DNA from: Nannocystales bacterium
GTDB lineage: Bacteria > Myxococcota_A > Polyangia > Nannocystales > Nannocystaceae
DNA length: 64,000 nucleotides
Direction: 5' to 3'
Assembly (NCBI GenBank): GCA_050633305.1
Contig: JBOEGF010000047.1
Coordinates: 1 to 64,000, forward strand
The notes below the pieces were generated by a model that ran no database searches, was not told the origin of the DNA, and saw nothing but the letters and a program-made list of their open reading frames with translations. The first letter of the stretch is position 1. Each line of letters opens with the position of its first letter. Of this stretch, positions 9,896 to 26,370 are shown one piece after another. The position numbers and the translations under genes were made by a program.

Positions 9896-9922
9896 GAAGT
9901 GTTCGATTGCTACGTTCTTGAC

Positions 9923-10834
9923 ATGGCCGCGAACACTCATGCCGAACGCCTCGCGCTCGCGAGCGTAGCGCTTGAGGGACTGGCTGTTGGGGACGCCTTT
10001 GGCGAGCAGTTCTTCGTTTTTCCAGCCGAAGCCGTGCTCATCATCGAACAGCGGTCCTTTCCAAAGCCCCCGTGGCCGTGGACCGACGATACGGCGATGG
10101 CGCTTTCGGTGGTTGAGGTCCTGGCCGGGTGCCAGGGCATCGACTCGGACGCTCTTGCAACGGCGTTTGCGCGTCGCTACCAGGCAGAACCCGACCGCGG
10201 ATACGGACCCGGTGCGCACCGCATTCTGCAGTCGATCGCCGAAGGCGTCCCGTGGCAAGAGGCGGCTTCGAGCGCGTTTGGTGGCCAAGGTTCGTTCGGC
10301 AACGGCGCTGCGATGCGTGCAGCACCGATCGGTGCGTACTTCTGGGATGACGACCACGCTGTCGTGGAGAATGCCGGGCGGTCGGCCGCACCAACCCATG
10401 CCCACCCAGAGGGCCAAGCTGGAGCGATCGCGGTGGCCGTGGCAGCTGCGACCGCAGCTCGTATCGCTCGTGGTGAATGCGCGGACAACCGAGCGTTGCT
10501 CTTCGAACGAGTCGCCATGCTTTGCCCGCCAGGCGTGACACGGGACCGCATCATCGAGGCACAGACCATGGCGGATAGCGATGATGCCCACCGTGTTGCA
10601 GCGATGGTCGGCAACGGCGAGGGTGCTGCGGCTCAGGACACCGTGCCGTTCTCCATCTGGTGTGCCGCACGACGACTCGACAACTTCGAAGAAGCGATGT
10701 GGACGACGGTGTCCGCGCTCGGCGATCGAGATACGACCTGCGCCATCGTCGGCGGGATCGTGGCTGCGCGTGTAGGGCGAGAAGGTCTACCCGCGAGGTT
10801 CCTCAAAGCTCGTGAGAGGCTGCCGAGCTCGTAA
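9923..10834 (+). CDS. ADP-ribosylglycohydrolase (DraG/Tri1 family)
   Basis: GLAVGDAFG, WTDDTAMA, GSFGNGAAMR, THAHPE, GDRDTTCAIVG motifs all intact. Confidence 0.95.
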   Translation: MAANTHAERLALASVALEGLAVGDAFGEQFFVFPAEAVLIIEQRSFPKPPWPWTDDTAMALSVVEVLAGCQGIDSDALATAFARRYQAEPDRGYGPGAHRILQSIAEGVPWQEAASSAFGGQGSFGNGAAMRAAPIGAYFWDDDHAVVENAGRSAAPTHAHPEGQAGAIAVAVAAATAARIARGECADNRALLFERVAMLCPPGVTRDRIIEAQTMADSDDAHRVAAMVGNGEGAAAQDTVPFSIWCAARRLDNFEEAMWTTVSALGDRDTTCAIVGGIVAARVGREGLPARFLKARERLPSS

Positions 10835-11269
10835 CCATCGGCGGCTGATCGCCATCGAGAACGCCGTCGCGACAATCGAGAAAACGCCTGCACGCAGCCG
10901 GCTCCGGACACAGGGCCGCAGTTCGCCTGCAGGTCCGCGACGCTCGCCCCCACCCCAGCCACTTCGGGCCCGCCCTTGATGGCTCGGGAACGAAGAAGAT
11001 GTCTTCGATGCAGCTCTTCGAGTCCGGCCGGCATGCGGAACACAGGGCTTCGGCGAGCTGTGTCTGTGCAGCCGTCGGCATCATCGACGCGGTCGTCTGA
11101 TAGATGCACAGCCTCTGCTCAAAGCTGTCGGGCGAAGCGCAGCCGCTGAGGAGCCTGGGCCCGAGCCGAAGCCCAAGCATCTCGCGCGACATGCCCCTCA
11201 CGGACACATCGACATCTAGGGCACCACAACCTTGTTCAAGACTCAGCTGCGTGATATTGCTCCCTCACA

Positions 11270-11420
11270 GCGACTCTGGATGACGCTCCTGGCCCGGGTG
11301 TTTCGCATCGACATCTCCGTGTGCTCCCGCAGTCGCGGGCCGATGCGGGTAGTTCGAGCCGTCACCACGCCGCATGACATCGCCGCCGAGCGTCACGCTG
11401 CTCGGCCACCGCCCCGTGGG
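11270..11420 (+). pseudogene. IS91-family transposase C-terminal remnant
   Basis: WMTLLARVFRIDISVCSRSRGPMRVVRAVT...ARPPPRGP resembles the W..LL.RVF.ID...CP.CGG.MR tail. Confidence 0.6.
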
Positions 11421-11769
11421 CCCGTGTCCGCAAACTCCCGCTCTGCTCCGCTACGCCCTGAGTGTTCTGCGCTGCGCCTGTGGGTGGGCGCCGCTTCGTA
11501 CGGGGCTCGTCTCGGCGTGCCTTCCCTTTCCCTCGGGGCTCGGCGTTCGGCTCGGGCCCACGTTTCGCCACCGATGCCTTTGCTTTGCCCCTGTTCACAG
11601 CCGGCCGCTCAGTTCCTGCTCCATCACCGCCCTCGAGGGCGGGAAGCCGTACTCCTTCGTAGCGGCTTTTTCCCACTTCGTTTGGCTCAAACGCACGATT
11701 GAGCTGATCAGGCAGCGTGGAGCCGTGAGCCAGCTTCCGCACTCGAACGAACACACGTATCCTTGTGAC

Positions 11770-12843
11770 GTGCGCTGGTTGGCAGGGATTGCCGCCGTAT
11801 GGGTGAGTGGCTGTGGACCGGACTCCGACCCGGACGGCTTCTCACGTCTCGCGTTCCTCCGAGACGGCAACGTCCACCAGACCGGTGGCCATGCCGCGCC
11901 GGTCTCCGCGGTGTTGGACAACGGTAGCCCGTCCTCGATGCATCCGGTCGAGCTGGCGTGGATGCGAAACGGTGTCCTGCTCTCTCTGTACAGCGACATG
12001 TCCGTAGCACGGGTCGATGAGAGTCCACTGCAACGAATCGGCACTTTCGACTGCGATCTTCAAGTCTACGACAGCACGTTTCGGGCCGAGGGCGACCTGC
12101 TGATCACGGACGTTCGCGGGAGTGCACCCTTCGGAACGGGCGAGATCGGAACCTGCTCATCGGGCATCGAGCCCATGAACCCGGACGGGCGACGAACCTG
12201 GGAGTTGTTCGGCAGCACGGTGAGCACGAACGGCGAGAGTCTGGCCGTGTCCTGTCGTGGGCTGTTCGAGGGTCTACGTACCGTGGAGTTGGTCGACTTG
12301 GACACACAGAAGGTGCTGGCCCAGCACCAGCTGAGCCACTGCCCGATTCTGCAACCTGGTGGGGACATGATCGCCTTCCGCGACGCCGGCCGACTCATGC
12401 TCGGCCCCGCAGACGACGTCGAGGCGGCCACGTGGATCGTCACCGGGCACGGGTTCAGCGAAACCTGGTCTCCCGACGGGCGCAGCCTGCTCGTCGATCG
12501 TGAGGGCGACGACTGGGCTGTCATCGACGCGACCACCGGCAGGGCTGTCGGTGCTGTCGGCGGCGAACAGGCTCGCTGGGCCGAATCCTCGAATCACCTT
12601 CTGTTGACCGAGCGATGCGGTCCGGACGAAACCCGCCTCACCGTTCACGCCCACGAACAAGGCCTCCCCGAGCTTTGGAGCACCGCCTGCGGATCCCGGG
12701 GCCGCGGTTGGCTGTCACCCGACGGCGACTCGATCGCCGCGACCGATTGGGAGGACGCTCGACAAGAGGTCGTTGTGATGAACCAGGACGGCCGCGTCTG
12801 GTCCCTCGGCGAGGGCTCCAGTCCGACCTGGCGACCGGAGTGA
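11770..12843 (+). CDS. Lipoprotein with TolB-like beta-propeller
   Basis: Lipobox VWVSGC; WSPDGRSL, LSPDGDSI, SPTWRP repeats. Confidence 0.75.
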   Translation: MRWLAGIAAVWVSGCGPDSDPDGFSRLAFLRDGNVHQTGGHAAPVSAVLDNGSPSSMHPVELAWMRNGVLLSLYSDMSVARVDESPLQRIGTFDCDLQVYDSTFRAEGDLLITDVRGSAPFGTGEIGTCSSGIEPMNPDGRRTWELFGSTVSTNGESLAVSCRGLFEGLRTVELVDLDTQKVLAQHQLSHCPILQPGGDMIAFRDAGRLMLGPADDVEAATWIVTGHGFSETWSPDGRSLLVDREGDDWAVIDATTGRAVGAVGGEQARWAESSNHLLLTERCGPDETRLTVHAHEQGLPELWSTACGSRGRGWLSPDGDSIAATDWEDARQEVVVMNQDGRVWSLGEGSSPTWRPE

Positions 12844-13041
12844 CCGAGGCCGAGGTTTCCGCCGCCGCAAGGTCGCGGGGTACGTGAAGTCCGCTCGCGA
12901 GACGATTGAAGCGGCGGGAGAGCTGGGCGATGCCACGAAGACGAAGTCCGTGCGTTTTTACGAGCTGTGCCCAACGACGTAGCTGCGGAACCCCGTGTCC
13001 GCCTGTTCTGGGCACCGGGCGCCGCTGATAGCCTAGGGCCC

Positions 13042-13572
13042 ATGGACCCCGTCTGTGCCGAGCATCCGATCGCATCAAGCTATTGGGCAGAGCCGGGCAA
13101 ACTCCTGGCGGGCCCGCACCCAGGGGTTGGGGACCGGGCGACGCAGCGCGCGACCCTGCGGGCGTTGGCCGACGCTGGCATCCGCACGGTGATCGATCTG
13201 ACCACGCCGCGCGAGCTGCCCGGAGTCCGCGTCCTGTGGGAGAAGCTCGCTCCGAACGCAGAGGAGTGGGCGTGGGTCGGCAGCCCGGTCCTCGACGGCG
13301 GGATTCCCAGCCGGGCAGGAATGCAGTTGGTGCTGGACACCATCGATGCCAGCTGCGGCCGCGGACGGCCGGTCTACGTGCACTGCATGGGCGGCCTGGG
13401 ACGTGCGGGGACCGTGGTCGCCTGCTGGTGGATTCGCCACGGCTTGGTCGAAGGCGAAGCGGTCTTCGACGCGTTGACGCGGCGCCGGGTGGGTCAGCCG
13501 AACGCACATTCCATCTCGCCGGAGACGGGCCCGCAGTTTCGTTTCATCCGGGCGTGGGCGCCGGGGGATTGA
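13042..13572 (+). CDS. Dual-specificity/tyrosine protein phosphatase
   Basis: VYVHCMGGLGRAG (HCX5R) catalytic loop; SYW...LLAG.HP; SPET..Q. Confidence 0.9.
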   Translation: MDPVCAEHPIASSYWAEPGKLLAGPHPGVGDRATQRATLRALADAGIRTVIDLTTPRELPGVRVLWEKLAPNAEEWAWVGSPVLDGGIPSRAGMQLVLDTIDASCGRGRPVYVHCMGGLGRAGTVVACWWIRHGLVEGEAVFDALTRRRVGQPNAHSISPETGPQFRFIRAWAPGD

Positions 13573-16188: not shown

Positions 16189-17092
16189 ATGTCTCAGTGG
16201 CTTTCCCGCTGGCTTCCATCGTCCGCGAGTGTCGAGCAGCTGGGCTCCCTCGATCTGCGCGCGGTTGTCCGAGAGTCCTCCACCATCCAACTCGATGCTG
16301 GCGAACGGCTTCGACTGGTCGCGGTCTACTTGGATGACAACGCGCTGGTGGCTGGAAGCACGAGTCTGGCGCAGTGGCAGGTGTTCTCCCGAATCTACGC
16401 AGAGGCGACGCGGCTGTGCCCCGAAGATCCATGGATCCCGAACTCCGTGGATCCCGAACTCCGTGGCAGTCACGTCGTTGAGCCTGTTCACCACGGCCGA
16501 GGACGACGAGCCGGGCAAAGATCGACTGTGGAGAATCGCCCTGGGGGCCGCCGAAACCGCGTGCGGAGTCGACGACGCGAACCCGGACCTTCGATACACG
16601 CTGGGGCACGTGCTGTATCACGTCCGCCCCAGTCGCACGACGGAGGCATTGGCTGCGTTCGAGCATGCAATCGCGCTCGACGACGGGCACGCGTGGGCCT
16701 CCCTGTACCGGGCCCACTGCCTCCACGATCTGGCTCGCTGGAACGATGCGGCACAGGCGTACGAGAGGGTCGACGCAGCCGCGTTCGCGGGACACGCTGC
16801 CTGGAGAATCGAGCTGCTGCGAGAGCAGCAGGCCTATTGCCTGCTCCGAGCCGGACATCGACAGGACGCGCTCAGGGTCTTCACCGCAGTCATCGAACGG
16901 TGCGAGGCAGCGATTTCCAGGGGCGAAGACTCGCTCAACTCCCCCGTGCTCGGTGAGCCGCCGCAGTTGCTGGTCGAGGCAGCAAAGGGAGAGCTACGGG
17001 CGGAGCTTCTCTCCCGCACCCGAGCGTTGCTCGAATCCTTCGACGAATGGCGCTCGTGGCTGAAGCTCGACGTCGACGTCGATGACGCCTGA
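16189..17092 (+). pseudogene. TPR protein split by a 16-bp tandem duplication
   Basis: N-part ends WIPNSV in one frame and resumes WIPNSVAV in the next; C-part has TPR helices (ALAAFEHAIALD, WNDAAQAYERV). Confidence 0.75.
16432..16463 (+). repeat. 16-bp tandem direct repeat (TGGATCCCGAACTCCG)x2
   Basis: Directly visible. Confidence 0.95.
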
Positions 17093-17197
17093 CCCGTCGT
17101 CGCAGCCTCCCGGCCCACGGCCGATGCCAGTGTACCTCATGGCCTCGCGGGCCTCCAGGTCGAGCACGCTGCGGGTCACCTGCGGTAGCCTCCGAGG

Positions 17198-17698
17198 GTG
17201 GGAGAGTTCGTCCTCGCGGCCGTAGAACTGGTTGAGCGCGGCGGAAAACCTGCGGCGCTCTTCGTGATGTTGCTCGGCCTCGCTCTGATCCCAACGGGAC
17301 TCTGGCTGACGTTCGTGATGCCCGGCGAGGCTCCTCTGGACGCGGCCCCGCTGGTGCACGCCGAGGAGGGCGACCGACTGTTCCTCCCCATCATGTTGGG
17401 CGTCAGCGTCGTCGGGCTGGCACTGTCGGGACTTGGAGCCGGGGCGCTGTTCGGGACGCAAGGTCGGATGCGTGGGCTCTTTCAGCGCTCGTCCTCGGTC
17501 GCGACGCAGACCGCAGAAGAGCAAGCGACTGTGTCCGCAGAGCTCCCGTTCTGGGTCTGCGGGGACTGTCGGGTTGTAGAGCCAGGCGCCTCCATCACGG
17601 CGCGTTGTACCCAGTGCGGATCGGTCTCCAGTTTCGTGCAGGTGGAGTCCGACGCGGACCGGCAGATGGCGCGGTCTGTCCTCGGGCACCTCGAATGA
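17198..17698 (+). CDS. Two-TM membrane protein with C-terminal zinc ribbon
   Basis: Two hydrophobic segments; WVCGDC...CTQCG. Confidence 0.7.
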   Translation: MGEFVLAAVELVERGGKPAALFVMLLGLALIPTGLWLTFVMPGEAPLDAAPLVHAEEGDRLFLPIMLGVSVVGLALSGLGAGALFGTQGRMRGLFQRSSSVATQTAEEQATVSAELPFWVCGDCRVVEPGASITARCTQCGSVSSFVQVESDADRQMARSVLGHLE

Positions 17699-17986
17699 CC
17701 TCACCAATGCTCGTGGCGCGTGCGCTCGTACCACGCTGCGAACAGACGCCGGAGCTCTCGGGCTGTTCAGATCTCGGCGGCCGTCTCATTGTGGAGAACT
17801 CGGCGCATTCGCCCTGGATGGTGAGTTCCTCGCCTACAACGGCGTACCGTTCGTCCTGCTTCACAACGGTCGCTTCACCTCGTCAGATCCGTTCTACCGA
17901 CTCGACCTGGCGTCCGATGGCACATGGGAACTCTCGACACCTCAATGCCGAGCGGTTTGGGCGGCCTCTCGGGACGGCGATGCTCG

Positions 17987-18454
17987 CTAGCCGGAGAGAA
18001 TCCGCTCCGCGTCCACCGCCCATTCCGGCGAACCGATGGTGAGGACGACTGCCGTCTTCGTCGTCACGGACAACGACGAATGTGGCAACGAAACGTTCTG
18101 GAACAACCACACCGTATCGACCAAAGACTCCGAATGATGGTCGGTCGTCATCACGGTCGCATCCTCGGACAGACCCAACTCGTCCCTCAACGCCACAATC
18201 ACCTCATCCGCAATGTCGTGCATGCGCGTGCACCCCGGGCCCCAAAACATCAGGTAGGACGCCCCCTGAAGCAGCAACGTGGTGAGCACGCGGTCGGCTT
18301 CTGCAACGTCCGTATCGCTGGAGTCCCACAAGACCAGGCATGCAAAGTGCTTCGAAACCGACAGCCCCTCACCGGGCACCTCCGCTGTGCACGAGACCGA
18401 CAGAGAATGCACCGCCCGGTCCAGCGAACCGCAGCCTAGGACCTTCATCGCCAT
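17987..18454 (-). CDS. Conserved hypothetical protein directly downstream of the tRNA modules
   Basis: LLLQGASYLMFWGPGCTRMHDIADE...VMTTDHHSESLVD, coding-like. Confidence 0.7.
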   Translation of the reverse strand: MAMKVLGCGSLDRAVHSLSVSCTAEVPGEGLSVSKHFACLVLWDSSDTDVAEADRVLTTLLLQGASYLMFWGPGCTRMHDIADEVIVALRDELGLSEDATVMTTDHHSESLVDTVWLFQNVSLPHSSLSVTTKTAVVLTIGSPEWAVDAERILSG

Positions 18455-18509
18455 CACAGAAGGGTACGCCGTTCCGCCAGGTTCCGAACACGCTTCTGCG
18501 CCCTGTCGA

Positions 18510-18585
18510 TGCGGGGAGCGGGGGTCGAACCCGCAAAATCTCCCGGCACTCAACCGGGCGGCTTTACCAACTTGCCCATCCCCGC
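18510..18585 (-). tRNA. Atypical tRNA-Leu(GAG), short variable arm, no CCA
   Basis: GCGGGGA/TCCCCGC acceptor + A73; D-arm GGC-AAGTTGGTAAA-GCC; AC stem CCCGG/CCGGG with loop TTGAGTG; 7-nt V region AGATTTT; T-arm GCGGG-TTCGACC-CCCGC. Confidence 0.85.
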
Positions 18586-18590
18586 GTGGA

Positions 18591-18666
18591 TGCGGAGAGC
18601 GGGGATCGAACCCGCAAAATCTCTCGGGTCTGAACCGAGCGGCTTTACCAACTTGCCCACCTCCGC
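18591..18666 (-). tRNA. Atypical tRNA-Leu(CAG), short variable arm, no CCA
   Basis: GCGGAGG/TCTCCGC + A73; same D-arm; AC stem CTCGG/CCGAG with loop TTCAGAC; T-arm GCGGG-TTCGATC-CCCGC. Confidence 0.85.
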
Positions 18667-18757
18667 GCGTGCGCGCGTGTTCGGACTCACCCCATTCGGC
18701 GATCTGGCCATGAGCGGCGAGTCCGTATTCAGTTGTTCGGAGTCCTGGCCGGGAGTC

Positions 18758-18853
18758 CTACGTAGGCGCAAGGCCCCGTCGTGCAACCAGCAGCGTCGCG
18801 CCCGGCAGGAGCCGAGTACGGAGCGGGCAGCAAACTGGGATTTGGGTCGCCAT
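18758..18853 (-). CDS. Putative leader peptide MATQIPVCCPLRTRLLPGATLLVARRGLAPT (31 aa) upstream of tRNA-Leu pair
   Basis: ATG 10 nt after -10 box; Leu codons CTC, CTC-CTG, CTG-CTG, CTT; stop lies inside a long hairpin. Confidence 0.5.
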   Translation of the reverse strand: MATQIPVCCPLRTRLLPGATLLVARRGLAPT

Positions 18854-18862
18854 TGTCCTCAC

Positions 18863-18891
18863 AACATGGTCGCGGCGCGGAAGTCTGTCAA
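18863..18891 (-). promoter_or_regulatory. Sigma70-type promoter of tRNA-Leu module
   Basis: TTGACA (18891-18886), 17-nt spacer, CATGTT (18868-18863). Confidence 0.6.
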
Positions 18892-18956
18892 ACCGAAATC
18901 AGACTCGCGAACTCGAAAGGGGTCCGTGGCCCTCAGGAAACACTGAGCAGAATCAA

Positions 18957-19029
18957 TACGGCGTCCAGGACTCGAACCTGGATCTTGGGTTTCGAACACC
19001 CGTGTCCTATCCGTTTGGACGAACGCCGC
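18957..19029 (-). tRNA. Atypical tRNA-Arg(UCG), no CCA
   Basis: GCGGCGT/ACGCCGT acceptor; D-arm GTCC-AAACGGATA-GGAC with A after GG (Arg identity A20); loop GTTCGAA; T-arm CCAGG-TTCGAGT-CCTGG; one C-A mismatch in AC stem. Confidence 0.8.
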
Positions 19030-19034
19030 AACGA

Positions 19035-19106
19035 TGCGACGTCCAGGATTCGAACCTGGATTTCGAGGTTCGCCCCCTCGTGTCCTGTCCGTTGGACGAA
19101 CGCCGC
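19035..19106 (-). tRNA. Atypical tRNA-Arg(GCG), G32/G33, no CCA
   Basis: GCGGCGT/ACGTCGC acceptor; GTCC/GGAC D-stem; AC stem CGAGG/CCTCG with loop GGGCGAA; T-arm CCAGG-TTCGAAT-CCTGG. Confidence 0.8.
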
Positions 19107-19145
19107 AATGGTTCGACGAGTTCGGTTGTGTCCCCACGTTCGTCG

Positions 19146-19292
19146 CTACGCCAGGTCGCCGTCGGGCCGGACGGACAGCGTGGGCGTTGGACGCAAGCCA
19201 CTGGCGACAGACGAACAACACATCCCCTCGAGCGCGTACCCCATGGAGGGCTCGCTGCTCGCCAAGGCGACGTCGTTGTTCGATGCGGTCAC
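19146..19292 (-). CDS. Putative leader ORF (48 aa) upstream of tRNA-Arg pair
   Basis: GTG 10 nt after -10 box (same spacing as Leu module); TAG inside 3' arm of hairpin; only two Arg codons. Confidence 0.3.
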   Translation of the reverse strand: MTASNNDVALASSEPSMGYALEGMCCSSVASGLRPTPTLSVRPDGDLA

Positions 19293-19301
19293 AGTACGAG
19301 G

Positions 19302-19330
19302 TGGCTAGCGCCGAGCTCGGGCGCTGTCAA
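19302..19330 (-). promoter_or_regulatory. Sigma70-type promoter of tRNA-Arg module
   Basis: TTGACA (19330-19325), 17-nt spacer containing palindrome CCGAGCTCGG, TAGCCA (19307-19302). Confidence 0.5.
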
Positions 19331-19416
19331 CGCGGATTCCCAACCGAGTTCAAACTGGAGAACAATTCGAACGGCTCTTCGTCGCACACACAACTGTGAC
19401 ACGCTACGCTCAGAGG

Positions 19417-20383
19417 GTGCGTACAGACGTGGACGCTGCCGTATGCCTGCGATGGCGCTTTGAGCAGCTCGCACACGCCACCTCTGACCTCGTGCGCGTG
19501 AGCCATCGGGACGATGTCACCCTCGCGCTCCTCGCCAACGCTGGCGAGTCGGGCTTCTCCACATGCTGGCCCAGGGGGTCACGCCTGCTTCTCGACGAGT
19601 TCGAGCGGGCATGGGACGCCGGCACAGGAGCGCCCGACATGCGGCTTGCCGACGCCTTCGCGGCCGCCAGCACCTCTTTCTGCGAGAACGCAGCAGCTCT
19701 GCACCCACCGGAACCCGACATCCCCGGCGGCCTCTCCTACGGAACGCTTCTGGCGGTCGCGGTCGCAGGCTCGAGGGTCGAGGGTCGAGGTTGCCTGGGT
19801 CGGTGGGGCCCGGGCGGTGCTCGTCCGCGGCCACACAGCCGAGGCGTTCACCCGTCCGCACCCCCTCCTCGAACAGGTTCTCGAGGTCGGCCTGGACCCA
19901 CGGTCGAACGCCTCATGGCCGATTGACATCCTGAGGCGCACCATCGGTCCGGGCGACACAAACGACGCCGGCCCGGACTACGCGCGCTTCGAGTTTCGCG
20001 CGGGCGATACGCTCGTCCTGCTCTCGAACTCGGGGATGCAAAAGCCACCAGTCAGCCTCAACACAATAGCGGACATGGTTGCACTCGAGCCGGACGTCGA
20101 CGCTGCAGCTTCGGCGGTGACGTCCGCCGAATACGCGAACAGCACCCCCTCGATCGCCGCCTCGCGGTACTACGCCCAAAAGGGTGATAGCGATGCACGG
20201 CGACGACATCGACGACGCGACCCCAACCGCCCTCCCGTAGACGAGCGGCTTGGAGTTCCAGCACCGCATCGCATCGCATCGCATCGCATCGCATCGCATC
20301 GCATCGACGATGCCCTCCCGGCTTCAAGTTCGCAGGTACGATCCAGGCCCTCCGCCGGGGACGGCGGTTCAAGGTGGAGGTAG
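19417..20383 (+). pseudogene. Degenerate PP2C-like phosphatase, frameshifted by 7-bp duplication
   Basis: GTLLAVAVAGSRVE|VAWVGGARAVLVRG...ILRRTIG...GDTLVLLSNSG; TCGAGGG duplicated at 19771-19790; 3' end uncertain. Confidence 0.6.
20266..20305 (+). repeat. Pentanucleotide microsatellite (GCATC)x8
   Basis: Directly visible. Confidence 0.95.
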
Positions 20384-20520
20384 AGCCGAACGCTCGAGGC
20401 CCTCCCCTGCCAAACCGCGACATGCTCAAACCGGTCCCTGGGAACGAGTTTCCTGCGCGTCTCTTGAGATAGACCTGAGATTGTTCACTGGACACATTCC
20501 GGTCACGGTGCAGGAGAGCT

Positions 20521-21075
20521 ATGCGTGTCGCCCCAATGCCAAGTATGCGGTGCCAGGTCGGAAAACCGGGCGTTCTCGGCGTCGTAGACCTTAACTGCGG
20601 CTGGTACAGCCTCCGTTCGGTCGTCGGCTACCACTTCCGGCGGATCACTGGCCAGGACATGAGACATAGCCACCTTCCAAAGCCGACACTTGCAGCATTC
20701 CACCCGCGCGCCGATCTACCAGCTGACCTTCAGCCGCGCGTCACCGTTGACGACAAGCCCCGCAACGTCGGCGACTGGATCACGCGACTTCAGACCAACG
20801 GGCCGATCGTCGTCTCGGGGAAACTCGGGGCCGCATCGTGGGGCCGAGTTCCGGGTCTTGGGACCAAGCTAGGCGTGGGGCACTTCATCCTCATCGTCGG
20901 AGCACACGCTGGGCCATGGGCAGGTGGGGGTCAACTCATCTACAAGGACCCCCTCCAGGGCGATCATATTCGCCATCACTCGTTCACCGAGATGGATAGT
21001 CGCATCGACAATGATGTGTACTACGTGACTCGTCAAAACGCGCCCGCCCTGCTCCACGCGCTCCAGGCAACCTAG
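20521..21075 (+). CDS. Papain-fold cysteine peptidase-like protein (C39/C70-like)
   Basis: Q...NCGWYS, GPIVV, GHFILIVG, IYKDP give a Cys-His-Asp pattern. Confidence 0.65.
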   Translation: MRVAPMPSMRCQVGKPGVLGVVDLNCGWYSLRSVVGYHFRRITGQDMRHSHLPKPTLAAFHPRADLPADLQPRVTVDDKPRNVGDWITRLQTNGPIVVSGKLGAASWGRVPGLGTKLGVGHFILIVGAHAGPWAGGGQLIYKDPLQGDHIRHHSFTEMDSRIDNDVYYVTRQNAPALLHALQAT

Positions 21076-25268: not shown

Positions 25269-25700
25269 ATGGACTACCTCGTCATTGACCTTGAAGCGAC
25301 TGGCACGAGATGGAGATCATCGAGATCGGGGCGGTCGTGGTGGATGGGACGGATCTGCAGCCACGCTACGAGTTCCAGACATTCATCCGGCCGGTGCGCA
25401 ACCCGGTGCTCACCCCCTTCTGCGCGTCACTGACGTCGATCACCCAACCCATGCTCGAAGATGCACCCGGATTCGCGGCGGCGATGCTCGCCCTGACCGA
25501 TTTCATCAACGGGCGCGACCTGCTGTTCTGCTCCTGGGGCGCGTATGACAACAATCAGTTCTCGACGGGCGCGCGGTACCACGGCGTCGCCCTGCCCTTC
25601 GACGGCCGTCACCTCAACTTGAAAGCGGAGTTCTCCAGTCGGCGAAGCACCCGCAAGCGCTTCGGGATGGCGTCGGCACTCGAGCCCCCGTCAACGCTCC
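25269..25700 (+). pseudogene. DEDDh 3'-5' exonuclease (ERI-1/KapD-like), frameshifted and C-terminally truncated
   Basis: MDYLVIDLEAT and EIIEIGAV...LTPFCASLTSITQ...FCSWGAYD in different frames; final H/D motif absent. Confidence 0.75.
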
Positions 25701-25722
25701 TGGCCCGCGACGCCGGGGTTCA

Positions 25723-26370
25723 TCACTCTCCGGGCTGAGGCGCAGGGCCTGGAGGCGGGTCCTCCGGGACATCGGGCTCGTCGCAGAAGCAGACATCGTG
25801 CTCCTTCTCCTCGCTGTAGCCACACCCGACAGCGTCCAGCGGGTCGTCACCGGACGCGCAGACGTCCTCGCAGTCCGCTTCGATGACCTCGCCGTCGAGG
25901 CAGGCCACGATCCTCTCATCACCATCACACTCGAACCGGTCATCACCGCAACTCGCAGCCGGCGCGCCCGGTTCATCCGGACTGCCACCACCGCTGTCGT
26001 CGTCATCATCACCGGGCGTGGGCGACGGCCCCGGACTGTCCACCGAACCGTCGTCGTGAATCGTGCAGGCATTGACCTCCTGGTACTCGTCGAGGAAGTT
26101 GGTGCAGTTGTCGTTCTCGAGGGCGCGCTTCGTTTCGCGGGCCCAATCTCGCTGTGCGGAGGAGAGCAGTTCACCGGTGCAGCTGCTCACCACGTCCGTG
26201 CAGTCCTCAACCGACACACCGGCGGCAAAATAGTTGCAGGCATCGAAACGCTCACACAAGCGCTGCTCGACGGGCACCTCTTCGACGTCGCATCCGACGG
26301 TCGGACCAAAGAGCACACCTCCAACGACGACCGCAGGCACCAGCCCGACCAGACTCTTGGGGAACTTCAT
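25723..26370 (-). CDS. Cys-rich lipoprotein
   Basis: PTVGC lipobox, about 14 Cys, acidic. Confidence 0.75.
   Translation of the reverse strand: MKFPKSLVGLVPAVVVGGVLFGPTVGCDVEEVPVEQRLCERFDACNYFAAGVSVEDCTDVVSSCTGELLSSAQRDWARETKRALENDNCTNFLDEYQEVNACTIHDDGSVDSPGPSPTPGDDDDDSGGGSPDEPGAPAASCGDDRFECDGDERIVACLDGEVIEADCEDVCASGDDPLDAVGCGYSEEKEHDVCFCDEPDVPEDPPPGPAPQPGE

Follow-up and report, generated by a model that had tools for sequence, protein, structure and literature searches.

Two leader-tRNA modules at the locus

We examined a 64-kb window (positions 1 to 64,000 of contig JBOEGF010000047.1) of an 11.0-Mb, 66% G+C genome from the Nannocystaceae (Myxococcota). The minus strand of the window carries four tRNA genes within 600 bp, arranged as an arginine (Arg) module and a leucine (Leu) module, each consisting of a putative promoter, a long leader containing a short open reading frame (hereafter, frame), and a pair of tRNA genes (Table 1). 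Comparison with related loci places this array in a family of accessory tRNA modules that have in common a short frame close to the promoter and a hairpin, both conserved.

All four tRNA genes were called by both ARAGORN and the Rfam model RF00005 (Infernal), the latter with scores of 49.5–56.4 bits against a gathering score of 29. A first-pass annotation of the window had described the pairs as Arg GCG+UCG and Leu CAG+GAG with 5 nucleotides (nt) between partners. Both programs confirm the pairs, and the intergenic gap is 5 nt in each by the Infernal ends (2 nt for the Arg pair by the ARAGORN ends). A whole-genome ARAGORN run yielded 68 tRNA genes, four of which are those in the window modules. 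The housekeeping Leu tRNAs encoded elsewhere in the genome have the anticodons UAA, CAA, CAG, UAG and AAG, are 82–87 nt long and carry a long variable arm; the housekeeping Arg tRNAs have CCU, UCU, UCG, ACG and CCG. Because full Arg and Leu sets are encoded outside the window, the four window tRNAs are supernumerary.

The window Leu tRNAs depart from canonical class II tRNA-Leu (long variable arm, ~82–87 nt): they are 76 nt long with a variable loop of 7–8 nt, and the window Leu-CAG has A37 where the housekeeping Leu-CAG has G37. Their D-arm and A73 are still tRNA-Leu-like, and the window Arg tRNAs retain A at the A20 position; these features are identity elements of tRNA-Leu and tRNA-Arg, respectively. 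CCA is not encoded in any of the four genes. In the T-stem of Arg-GCG, the window and a related metagenomic locus of the same layout (L086, see below) differ by two compensatory pairs, by which measure the window tRNAs are under selection. At position 33 the L086 homologue carries U and the window copy G. Array copies vary at positions 32, 33, 37 and 38 and retain their anticodons, which cover the commonest Leu and Arg codons.

Promoters and module geometry

The two modules are set 439–440 bp apart (439 from TTGACA to TTGACA). In both, 9 nt separate the −10-like hexamer from the start codon (GTG at 19292; ATG at 18853), and the distance from the start codon to the first tRNA is 186 nt in the Arg module and 187 nt in the Leu module. 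The arrangement that the first-pass annotation had proposed for two minus-strand modules (TTGACA, 17-nt spacer, −10-like hexamer, start codon and 186–187-nt leader) thus holds, with a start-codon gap of 9 nt.

A scan of positions 17000–21000 for strict consensus promoters returned none. A hexamer nearly identical to the −10-like element of the Arg module occupies the same place in L086 and in a second metagenomic locus, L074, and the −10-like hexamer of the Leu module is kept in all five Leu-type leaders. TTGACA occurs nine times on the two strands of the 64-kb window. A genome-wide count over 22.0 million strand-bases gave 536 instances of the full geometry of −35, −10 and start codon (2.4e-5 per base); this geometry lies upstream of both window modules (2/2) and at none of the other 64 tRNA genes. 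The motif TTGAC[ATG] is found 39–70 nt upstream of 15 housekeeping tRNA genes, and at −224 and −225 for the window tRNAs. Because of this placement at the housekeeping genes, we identify TTGAC[ATG] as the predicted −35 element of the host's tRNA promoters. The module geometry is beyond chance, the predicted promoters appear to be real and the leader is exceptional.

The leaders share a conserved core and a covarying hairpin

The two leaders had been described as dissimilar in sequence, with architecture alone conserved. This description does not hold. In an alignment (A3) of Leu-type leaders, Arg-type leaders and a hybrid leader (G014), all have an invariant stretch in common, and directly behind it a hairpin of 6 bp whose loop is 6 bases long. 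In the pair counts 91.7% of its cells are paired, with compensatory changes in five of the six pairs. Its covariation score of 0.786 compares with 0.287 in shuffled alignments and was reached by none of 500 shuffles, and control helices slid along the alignment paired in at most 47.9% of cells. Leaders of diverged loci retain ~71% mean column identity, and at its N-terminal end the Arg-type frame has codons similar to those in leaders from arrays with Arg, proline (Pro), Leu and glutamine (Gln) tRNAs. The two window leaders, which share the conserved core and the covarying hairpin, appear to be distant homologues. With the N-terminal resemblance between leader types, this points to an architecture inherited from a common ancestor rather than acquired by convergence.

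The position of the hairpin relative to the frame differs between leader types. In the Leu type the hairpin directly follows the stop codon. In the Arg type the corresponding stop position is a sense codon; the frame crosses the hairpin and ends 12 nt later, directly before another hairpin. From the conserved hairpin it is another 40–90 nt to the tRNAs. The other Leu-type leaders also have a hairpin in the position of the tRNA-proximal hairpin of the window Leu leader, but of different sequence. The 18 nt upstream of the conserved hairpin are invariant in the five Leu-type leaders, synonymous sites included, and all three insertions or deletions among the five Leu-type frames are multiples of three (3, 3 and 12 nt). 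When folds were constrained by ribosome placement, a ribosome at the stop codon melted the post-stop hairpin, and placements upstream let it form.

An Rfam scan of positions 17500–20500 at expectation values (E) up to 1 gave the four tRNAs as the sole credible matches, with no T-box or other leader family and no degenerate tRNA within the 186-nt leaders. A scan of positions 17000–21000 for terminators found two terminator-like sites, one on the other strand and one inside the DUF7684 frame downstream of the array.

The stop codon of the Leu leader also lies at the centre of a perfect 10-bp DNA palindrome (18756–18765), 9–10 of whose 10 bases are kept in the six Leu-type and hybrid leaders. This palindrome could be a protein-binding site.

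Table 1. Positions of the predicted features of the tRNA array in the window
Feature	Position	Strand	Basis or remark
Putative −35 hexamer TTGACA, Arg module	19325–19330	−	Motif scan; same motif is the predicted −35 at 15 housekeeping tRNAs
−10-like hexamer, Arg module (2/6 matches to TATAAT)	19302–19307	−	17-nt spacer
Short leader frame, Arg module (GTG start, 48 codons, TAG stop)	19146–19292	−	Open and collinear in L086; 2 Arg codons
Conserved 6-bp hairpin with 6-base loop, inside Arg-module frame	19158–19175	−	Alignment A3, pair counts
Hairpin starting right after the TAG of the Arg-module frame; loop contains 9-base A/C-rich motif	19114–19145	−	Fold; same stem in L086
9-base A/C-rich motif of Arg leader, common to Leu leader	19121–19129	−	Leader comparison
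tRNA-Arg, anticodon GCG, G33 in place of U33	19035–19106	−	ARAGORN, RF00005
tRNA-Arg, anticodon UCG	18957–19029	−	ARAGORN, RF00005
Putative −35 hexamer TTGACA, Leu module, preceded by T-rich stretch	18886–18891	−	Motif scan
−10-like hexamer, Leu module (3/6 matches to TATAAT)	18863–18868	−	17-nt spacer
Short leader frame, Leu module (ATG start, 31 codons, TAG stop)	18758–18853	−	6 Leu codons
Conserved 6-bp hairpin right after the stop of the Leu-module frame	18740–18757	−	Alignment A3, pair counts
9-base A/C-rich motif, conserved downstream of Leu-leader hairpin	18728–18736	−	Alignment
Long hairpin, 10-bp outer stem, 15 nt ahead of tRNA, no U tract after it	18682–18725	−	Fold
tRNA-Leu, anticodon CAG, 76 nt, short variable loop, A37	18591–18666	−	ARAGORN, RF00005
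tRNA-Leu, anticodon GAG, 76 nt, short variable loop, U37	18510–18585	−	ARAGORN, RF00005
DUF7684 gene, ~55 nt downstream of Leu-GAG	17987–18457	−	Pfam PF24733, E 8.6e-12

Homologous arrays in Nannocystaceae and metagenomes

Of 72 genomes from the family, 5 contain a homologue of the short Leu tRNA; none of six genomes from the same genus does. A scan of species-representative genomes gave 43 loci, five of them in Myxococcota, and a scan of metagenome contigs gave 20. By ARAGORN, L076 and L087 carry the Leu-CAG + Leu-GAG pair, and L086 has the Arg pair plus Leu-CAG in the same layout as the window. L090 and G014 have a lone Leu-CAG, and G018 has Arg-GCG with Leu-CAG. Arrays confined to Arg and Leu tRNAs are present in Plesiocystis pacifica SIR-1 (six tRNAs) and Nannocystaceae bacterium ST9 (eight), and also in L073 and L089. 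Modules for other amino acids, whose existence the first-pass annotation had left to be checked, are represented by lower-G+C arrays with Arg, Pro, tyrosine (Tyr), Leu and Gln tRNAs [L074 (= L085), L075 and L084]. Array size among the relatives ranges from one to nine tRNA genes.

We compared 15 homologous modules from Nannocystaceae genomes and metagenomes for which upstream DNA and a short frame were available; L078, L079, L083, L088 and L089, in which the upstream DNA is missing, fall outside this comparison. TTGAC lies upstream in 14 of the 15 modules, P. pacifica being the exception. The −10 to start-codon gap is 9 nt in eight modules and 8 or 10 nt in three (11/15 in total); in three further modules it is 18–33 nt and a Shine-Dalgarno-like GGAG is present. 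The start codon lies 171–213 nt from the tRNA. Because the homologues span this range, the close agreement of 186 and 187 nt in the window is partly coincidence within a conserved range. Promoter, leader and short frame are kept among the homologous modules, and no homologous tRNA pair was without the leader where its upstream DNA was present. A short frame at the predicted start of the transcript, as in leader-peptide attenuators, is present in both window modules, and its placement, judged from the DNA alone, is conserved in 11 of the 15.

Within the 72 family genomes, a 25-nt leader motif searched with up to two mismatches occurred only in the window and at one doubtful site, and a covariance model of the leader element (R1) gave strong matches at its three training sites only, with four marginal sites at E 0.004–0.009.

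Several features of the related arrays stand apart from this comparison. In L019, about eight tandem repeats of 12 nt lie ~100–250 nt upstream of the Tyr tRNA and precede a Tyr/Pro/Leu array; one frame of the repeat reads as Leu and Tyr codons. Small protein frames lie between tRNA groups in lower-G+C arrays (L088, ~640–1200; also L079, L075 and L084), one with an HNH-like Cys/His motif and another a conserved Tyr-rich frame of 26 amino acids. Long tRNA arrays are known to hold HNH genes.

The Leu tRNAs themselves gave further observations. In L083 (1127–1202) the first tRNA of the Leu pair has the anticodon CAA, not CAG, a point change in a near-identical gene that amounts to anticodon switching. 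The genome's housekeeping set lacks GAG and includes Leu-AAG (G000 contig C76:3-87; L095), to which a counterpart tRNA gene, judged by its 83–100% identity, exists in 67 of the 72 family genomes. The commonest Leu codon, CTC (42.5%), would be read by an A34/I34 tRNA or by the accessory GAG tRNA. We considered the arrays as a source of G34 versions of the A34 housekeeping tRNAs (Leu-AAG, Arg-ACG) and dropped the idea, as related arrays carry AAG and ACG too. Leu tRNAs, as called, of just 74–79 nt also occur in large arrays of cyanobacteria, Gimesia, a Mycobacteriales metagenome-assembled genome and Clostridium (L030-L072, e.g. L056, L034, L043 and L047), and the Leu tRNA arms of two relatives (G033 and G024) are of intermediate length. 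Leu tRNAs carried in arrays may thus commonly lack the long variable arm as a general trait.

Codon content of the leader frames

Leader composition was evaluated by a binomial test against the amino-acid composition of long frames in this genome. The leaders of four Arg+Leu arrays contain 17/37, 19/41, 21/42 and 16/29 Arg+Leu residues (P 5.6e-5 to 1.4e-6), and those of three mixed Arg/Pro/Leu/Gln(/Tyr) arrays contain 21/41, 21/37 and 20/37 cognate residues (P 1.8e-3 to 9.7e-5). The Leu-type leaders have 4–8 Leu in 31–36 residues, with P values from 0.011 to 0.37. Against 11,779 random frames of 25–60 codons drawn from 3 Mb of the genome, 13 of the 15 modules are enriched, the exceptions being the two Arg-type leaders. 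The enrichment is specific to the frame, being absent when the same DNA is read in its other two frames.

Most cognate codons in the leaders can be read by the tRNAs of the same array (18/19, 15/16, 20/21, 6/6, 4/4 and 7/8 for complete arrays); the readable share is lower at cut loci and in partial arrays. All six Leu codons of the window Leu frame are readable by its two downstream tRNAs. Rare codons are also over-represented: CGT, which accounts for 13% of Arg codons in long frames of the genome, is used for 12 of the 25 Arg codons in the Arg+Leu leaders of G018, ST9 and P. pacifica. The window leaders are the weakest examples of a codon match; the clearest are those of P. pacifica SIR-1, ST9 and the mixed metagenomic arrays. 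The +2 frame of the Arg leader, which is open in the window and contains 25% Arg, was considered as an alternative sensor and rejected, since in L086 it is not continuous and no stop codon closes it ahead of the tRNA.

A candidate ribosome-sensing leader and competing explanations

We put at about even the chances that a ribosome-sensing leader, of the leader-peptide attenuator type, gates the accessory Arg and Leu tRNAs. Each module would be transcribed from a promoter of the σ70 type. The transcript would start almost at the start codon of the frame and give a leaderless message, as the 9-nt gap between −10 and start codon suggests. The speed of the ribosome along the short frame would then decide the folding of the hairpins that adjoin the stop codon, and the hairpin state would decide whether transcription continues into, or the transcript is processed into, mature spare tRNAs. 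By analogy, these would appear when decoding is slow. We infer that the short frame is translated, and likewise infer the direction of the switch (again by analogy) and the level at which it would act, be it termination, processing or stability.

A more specific proposal, which we advance tentatively and think somewhat more apt to fail than to hold, is that Nannocystaceae and related uncultured bacteria possess a self-correcting circuit for tRNA supply, in which a leaderless test frame is written in codons read by the spare tRNAs and stalling on it lets them through. The codon content of the frame would co-evolve with the array, being Leu only, Arg plus Leu, or Arg/Pro/Tyr/Leu/Gln. Such a circuit would apply the logic of the trp operon to tRNA genes, in a high-G+C variant without the classical U-tract terminator, and would guard against isoacceptor-specific loss, for example through anticodon nucleases.

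The first-pass annotation had proposed an amino-acid-specific switch that turns on replacement tRNAs. The supernumerary tRNAs, the conserved promoter, leader and frame, and the cognate leaders of relatives agree with that proposal; the window leaders themselves (2 Arg in 48 codons, 6 Leu in 31) and the failure to find a terminator switch do not. These and several other results weigh against a ribosome-sensing leader. The window Arg leader shows no Arg enrichment (P 0.89), nor does the other Arg-type leader (3/48, P 0.71), and the Leu content of the window Leu leader gives P 0.079 when compared with real-protein composition and 0.004 when compared with random frames. The matches in relatives, moreover, are not independent trials, as the leader families appear to be homologous and some loci are close kin. 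Frame differences between the window and L086 are spread evenly over the three codon positions (8/8/11 and 4/3/4). Because of this even spread, the leader peptide sequence itself is not conserved; the pattern is compatible with a frame for which the act of reading is what counts, or with non-coding DNA. A 48-codon open frame is not rare at 66% G+C. The terminator scan of 17000–21000 found no U-tract terminator in either leader, and the constrained folds gave no clear antiterminator/terminator pair, the tRNA-proximal hairpin forming at every ribosome position. The folding energy of the whole leaders is ordinary (z −0.60 and −1.34), and four related arrays (L019, L020, L021 and L061) have no such leader. 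In addition, G33 may impair the window Arg-GCG gene. A search for expression data over positions 18300–19500 found no RNA data set among the 24 runs listed.

Many of these points would be accommodated if the tRNAs were constitutively expressed accessory genes with a long processed 5' leader, serving folding, RNase P/RNase E processing or stability, in which the frames are incidental: no terminator was found, substitutions show no codon-position bias, open frames are common at this G+C content, the Arg leader lacks Arg enrichment, and conservation of the frame partly coincides with predicted helices. We consider this unlikely, although it has a real claim to attention. It does not account for a start codon fixed 8–10 nt from the −10 element in 11 of 15 modules, for indels in multiples of three, or for frame-specific cognate enrichment in seven relatives (P 1e-6 to 2e-3), and the housekeeping tRNAs of the same genome manage without such a leader. 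The bases in and around the hairpin loop that are invariant in all leader types, together with the 18 nt preceding the hairpin that are invariant even at synonymous sites in five Leu-type leaders, might instead be read, along with the stop-codon palindrome, by a trans-acting protein, tRNA or small molecule that sets tRNA output, rather than by the ribosome. Recognition by such a factor is in our judgement quite unlikely: no Rfam family, T-box included, matched at E up to 1, the motif recurs nowhere else in the 72 family genomes and hence reveals no visible regulon, and the tracking of tRNA content by leader composition in the relatives would be left unexplained.

The array might also be what is left of a tRNA array that was acquired horizontally and is now decaying, its function all but or entirely gone. 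Its absence from all six same-genus genomes and presence in only 5 of 72 family genomes, the lack of surrounding synteny, and the G33 of Arg-GCG, the pyrimidine 37 of Leu-GAG and the Arg leader poor in Arg would suit a remnant, but the Infernal scores of 49.5–56.4 bits for all four tRNAs, the compensatory stem changes relative to L086, and the retention of promoter, frame and hairpin across diverged loci (~71% mean column identity) make decay decidedly improbable. Finally, the non-canonical tRNA shape, the unusual anticodon loops, the restriction to Arg and Leu and an uncharacterised gene directly downstream raise the idea that the tRNAs serve a non-ribosomal process, supplying Leu- or Arg-tRNA to aminoacyl-tRNA-dependent transferases or to enzymes of natural-product synthesis. 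This would be very surprising, since the 26 neighbouring frames scanned include no transferase, cyclodipeptide synthase or similar family, no protein neighbour is conserved across loci save DUF7684 in one close relative, and the retained anticodons serve the most frequent Leu and Arg codons.

Relation to known systems

Leader-peptide attenuators are known for amino-acid operons (trp, his, leu, thr, ilv and phe). The modules described here resemble them in having a short frame at the predicted 5' end of the transcript and hairpins that adjoin its stop codon. A further resemblance is confined to the relatives, whose frames are rich in codons matching the regulated product and make heavy use of rare ones. 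They differ in that the genes presumed to be regulated are tRNAs and not biosynthetic enzymes, in that no U-tract terminator or clear pair of mutually exclusive hairpins was found, and in that most modules are leaderless by geometry, without a Shine-Dalgarno sequence, and the window Arg leader lacks regulatory codons.

The trn operon of Anabaena sp. PCC 7120, as described in two reports (PMC8421152; PMC10272220), contains 26 tRNA genes of many isotypes, has spread horizontally, is silent in normal growth, and is induced when translation is impaired, under promoter control through direct repeats and the repressor TrcR. Like that operon, the arrays studied here place supernumerary tRNAs beside a housekeeping set and have a horizontally spread distribution, although the role as spare tRNAs is only proposed here. 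Unlike it, they have 2–9 genes, of Arg and Leu only in the closest relatives, and in place of promoter control the candidate control lies in a predicted translated leader; the word 'leader' is absent from PMC8421152.

In mycobacteria, polycysteine leaderless short frames are reported to act as attenuators of protein-coding operons (bioRxiv 10.1101/834739). The parallels are a high-G+C host and an AUG/GUG frame at the 5' end of the message (predicted here); the codons of the frame register how much of one amino acid is available and thereby control the downstream genes, a parallel that we propose for the tRNA modules. The downstream genes differ, being tRNAs here, and the amino acids that would be sensed are Leu and Arg, joined in some relatives by Gln, Pro and Tyr.

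The tRNA array units reported from Mycobacterium, Acidithiobacillus and phages are dense same-strand groups of extra tRNAs with a patchy distribution (PMC4758250, PMC5966550, PMC12803027), defined as at least 20 tRNA genes at a density of at least 2 per kb (PMC4758250). The window array is likewise a patchily distributed same-strand cluster of extra tRNAs, and our tRNA calls show short-armed Leu tRNAs in such arrays as well. With four genes (1–9 in relatives) it falls below the 20-gene definition, and it has no phage or plasmid context.

Full-text literature searches, judged by titles and the starts of abstracts and with subscription journals outside their reach, returned no paper on control of tRNA genes by a leader frame; a full-text search with the same restriction on subscription journals returned none on tRNA arrays in Myxococcota. 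Bacterial tRNA genes are usually viewed as controlled only at their promoters, through growth rate and the stringent response. If the proposal of a ribosome-sensing leader is right, a translated leader gating spare tRNAs would provide direct feedback from decoding speed to tRNA supply, and would put forward a testable explanation of accessory tRNA arrays, a puzzling feature of many phyla and phages. To that design the Nannocystaceae examples would add a high-G+C, leaderless, terminator-less version. They also add arrays limited to Arg and Leu, and a series of Leu tRNAs without the long variable arm that bears on substrate recognition by leucyl-tRNA synthetase. Two carriers of Arg+Leu arrays with the clearest leaders, P. 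pacifica SIR-1 and Nannocystaceae bacterium ST9, are cultured, which makes experiments feasible.

Genomic context

The 15–22 kb flanking the array have no counterpart in the six same-genus genomes. The patchy distribution and the lack of flanking synteny suggest that the array has been gained and lost. The DUF7684 gene directly downstream is possibly co-transcribed with the tRNAs. In L083, too, the Leu tRNA pair has a DUF7684 gene behind it, 72.5% identical to the one in the window; no shared neighbours were found at the other array loci, where tblastx comparisons between loci gave compositional noise. A look-up of DUF7684 function in a protein atlas returned only DUF7684 clusters.

A tie to tRNase toxins, phage or starvation had been suggested for the modules and received no support from PADLOC, Pfam or viral contig scans. 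Pfam searches of 26 neighbouring frames matched ADP-ribosylglycohydrolase, a DSP-type phosphatase, TPR, a hydrolase, an RNase T fragment, a P450 and DUF7684, with no toxin, integrase or transferase, and no nuclease apart from the RNase T fragment. PADLOC, run on 19 neighbouring frames, gave a single match to a TAP-like hydrolase and nothing relevant to defence. No viral contigs with the Leu-tRNA pattern were found, nor any phage or plasmid context.

Three regions of the window away from the array drew attention. A 142-amino-acid frame at 25310–25738 covers only positions 17–86 of the 164-position RNase T exonuclease profile and is possibly a truncated gene. In the region 9899–13572, a distance of 2 kb separates an ADP-ribosylglycohydrolase gene (E 9e-59) from the DSP-type phosphatase gene, whose best matches are to the 'Swiss Army Knife' and polymorphic-toxin-system phosphatase families. 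The stretch 11144–11697, which comprises the upstream part and start of a 489-amino-acid frame (11374–12843), belongs to a large paralogous family with no Pfam match, dozens of copies at 70–89% identity being present in this genome and in those of the same genus.

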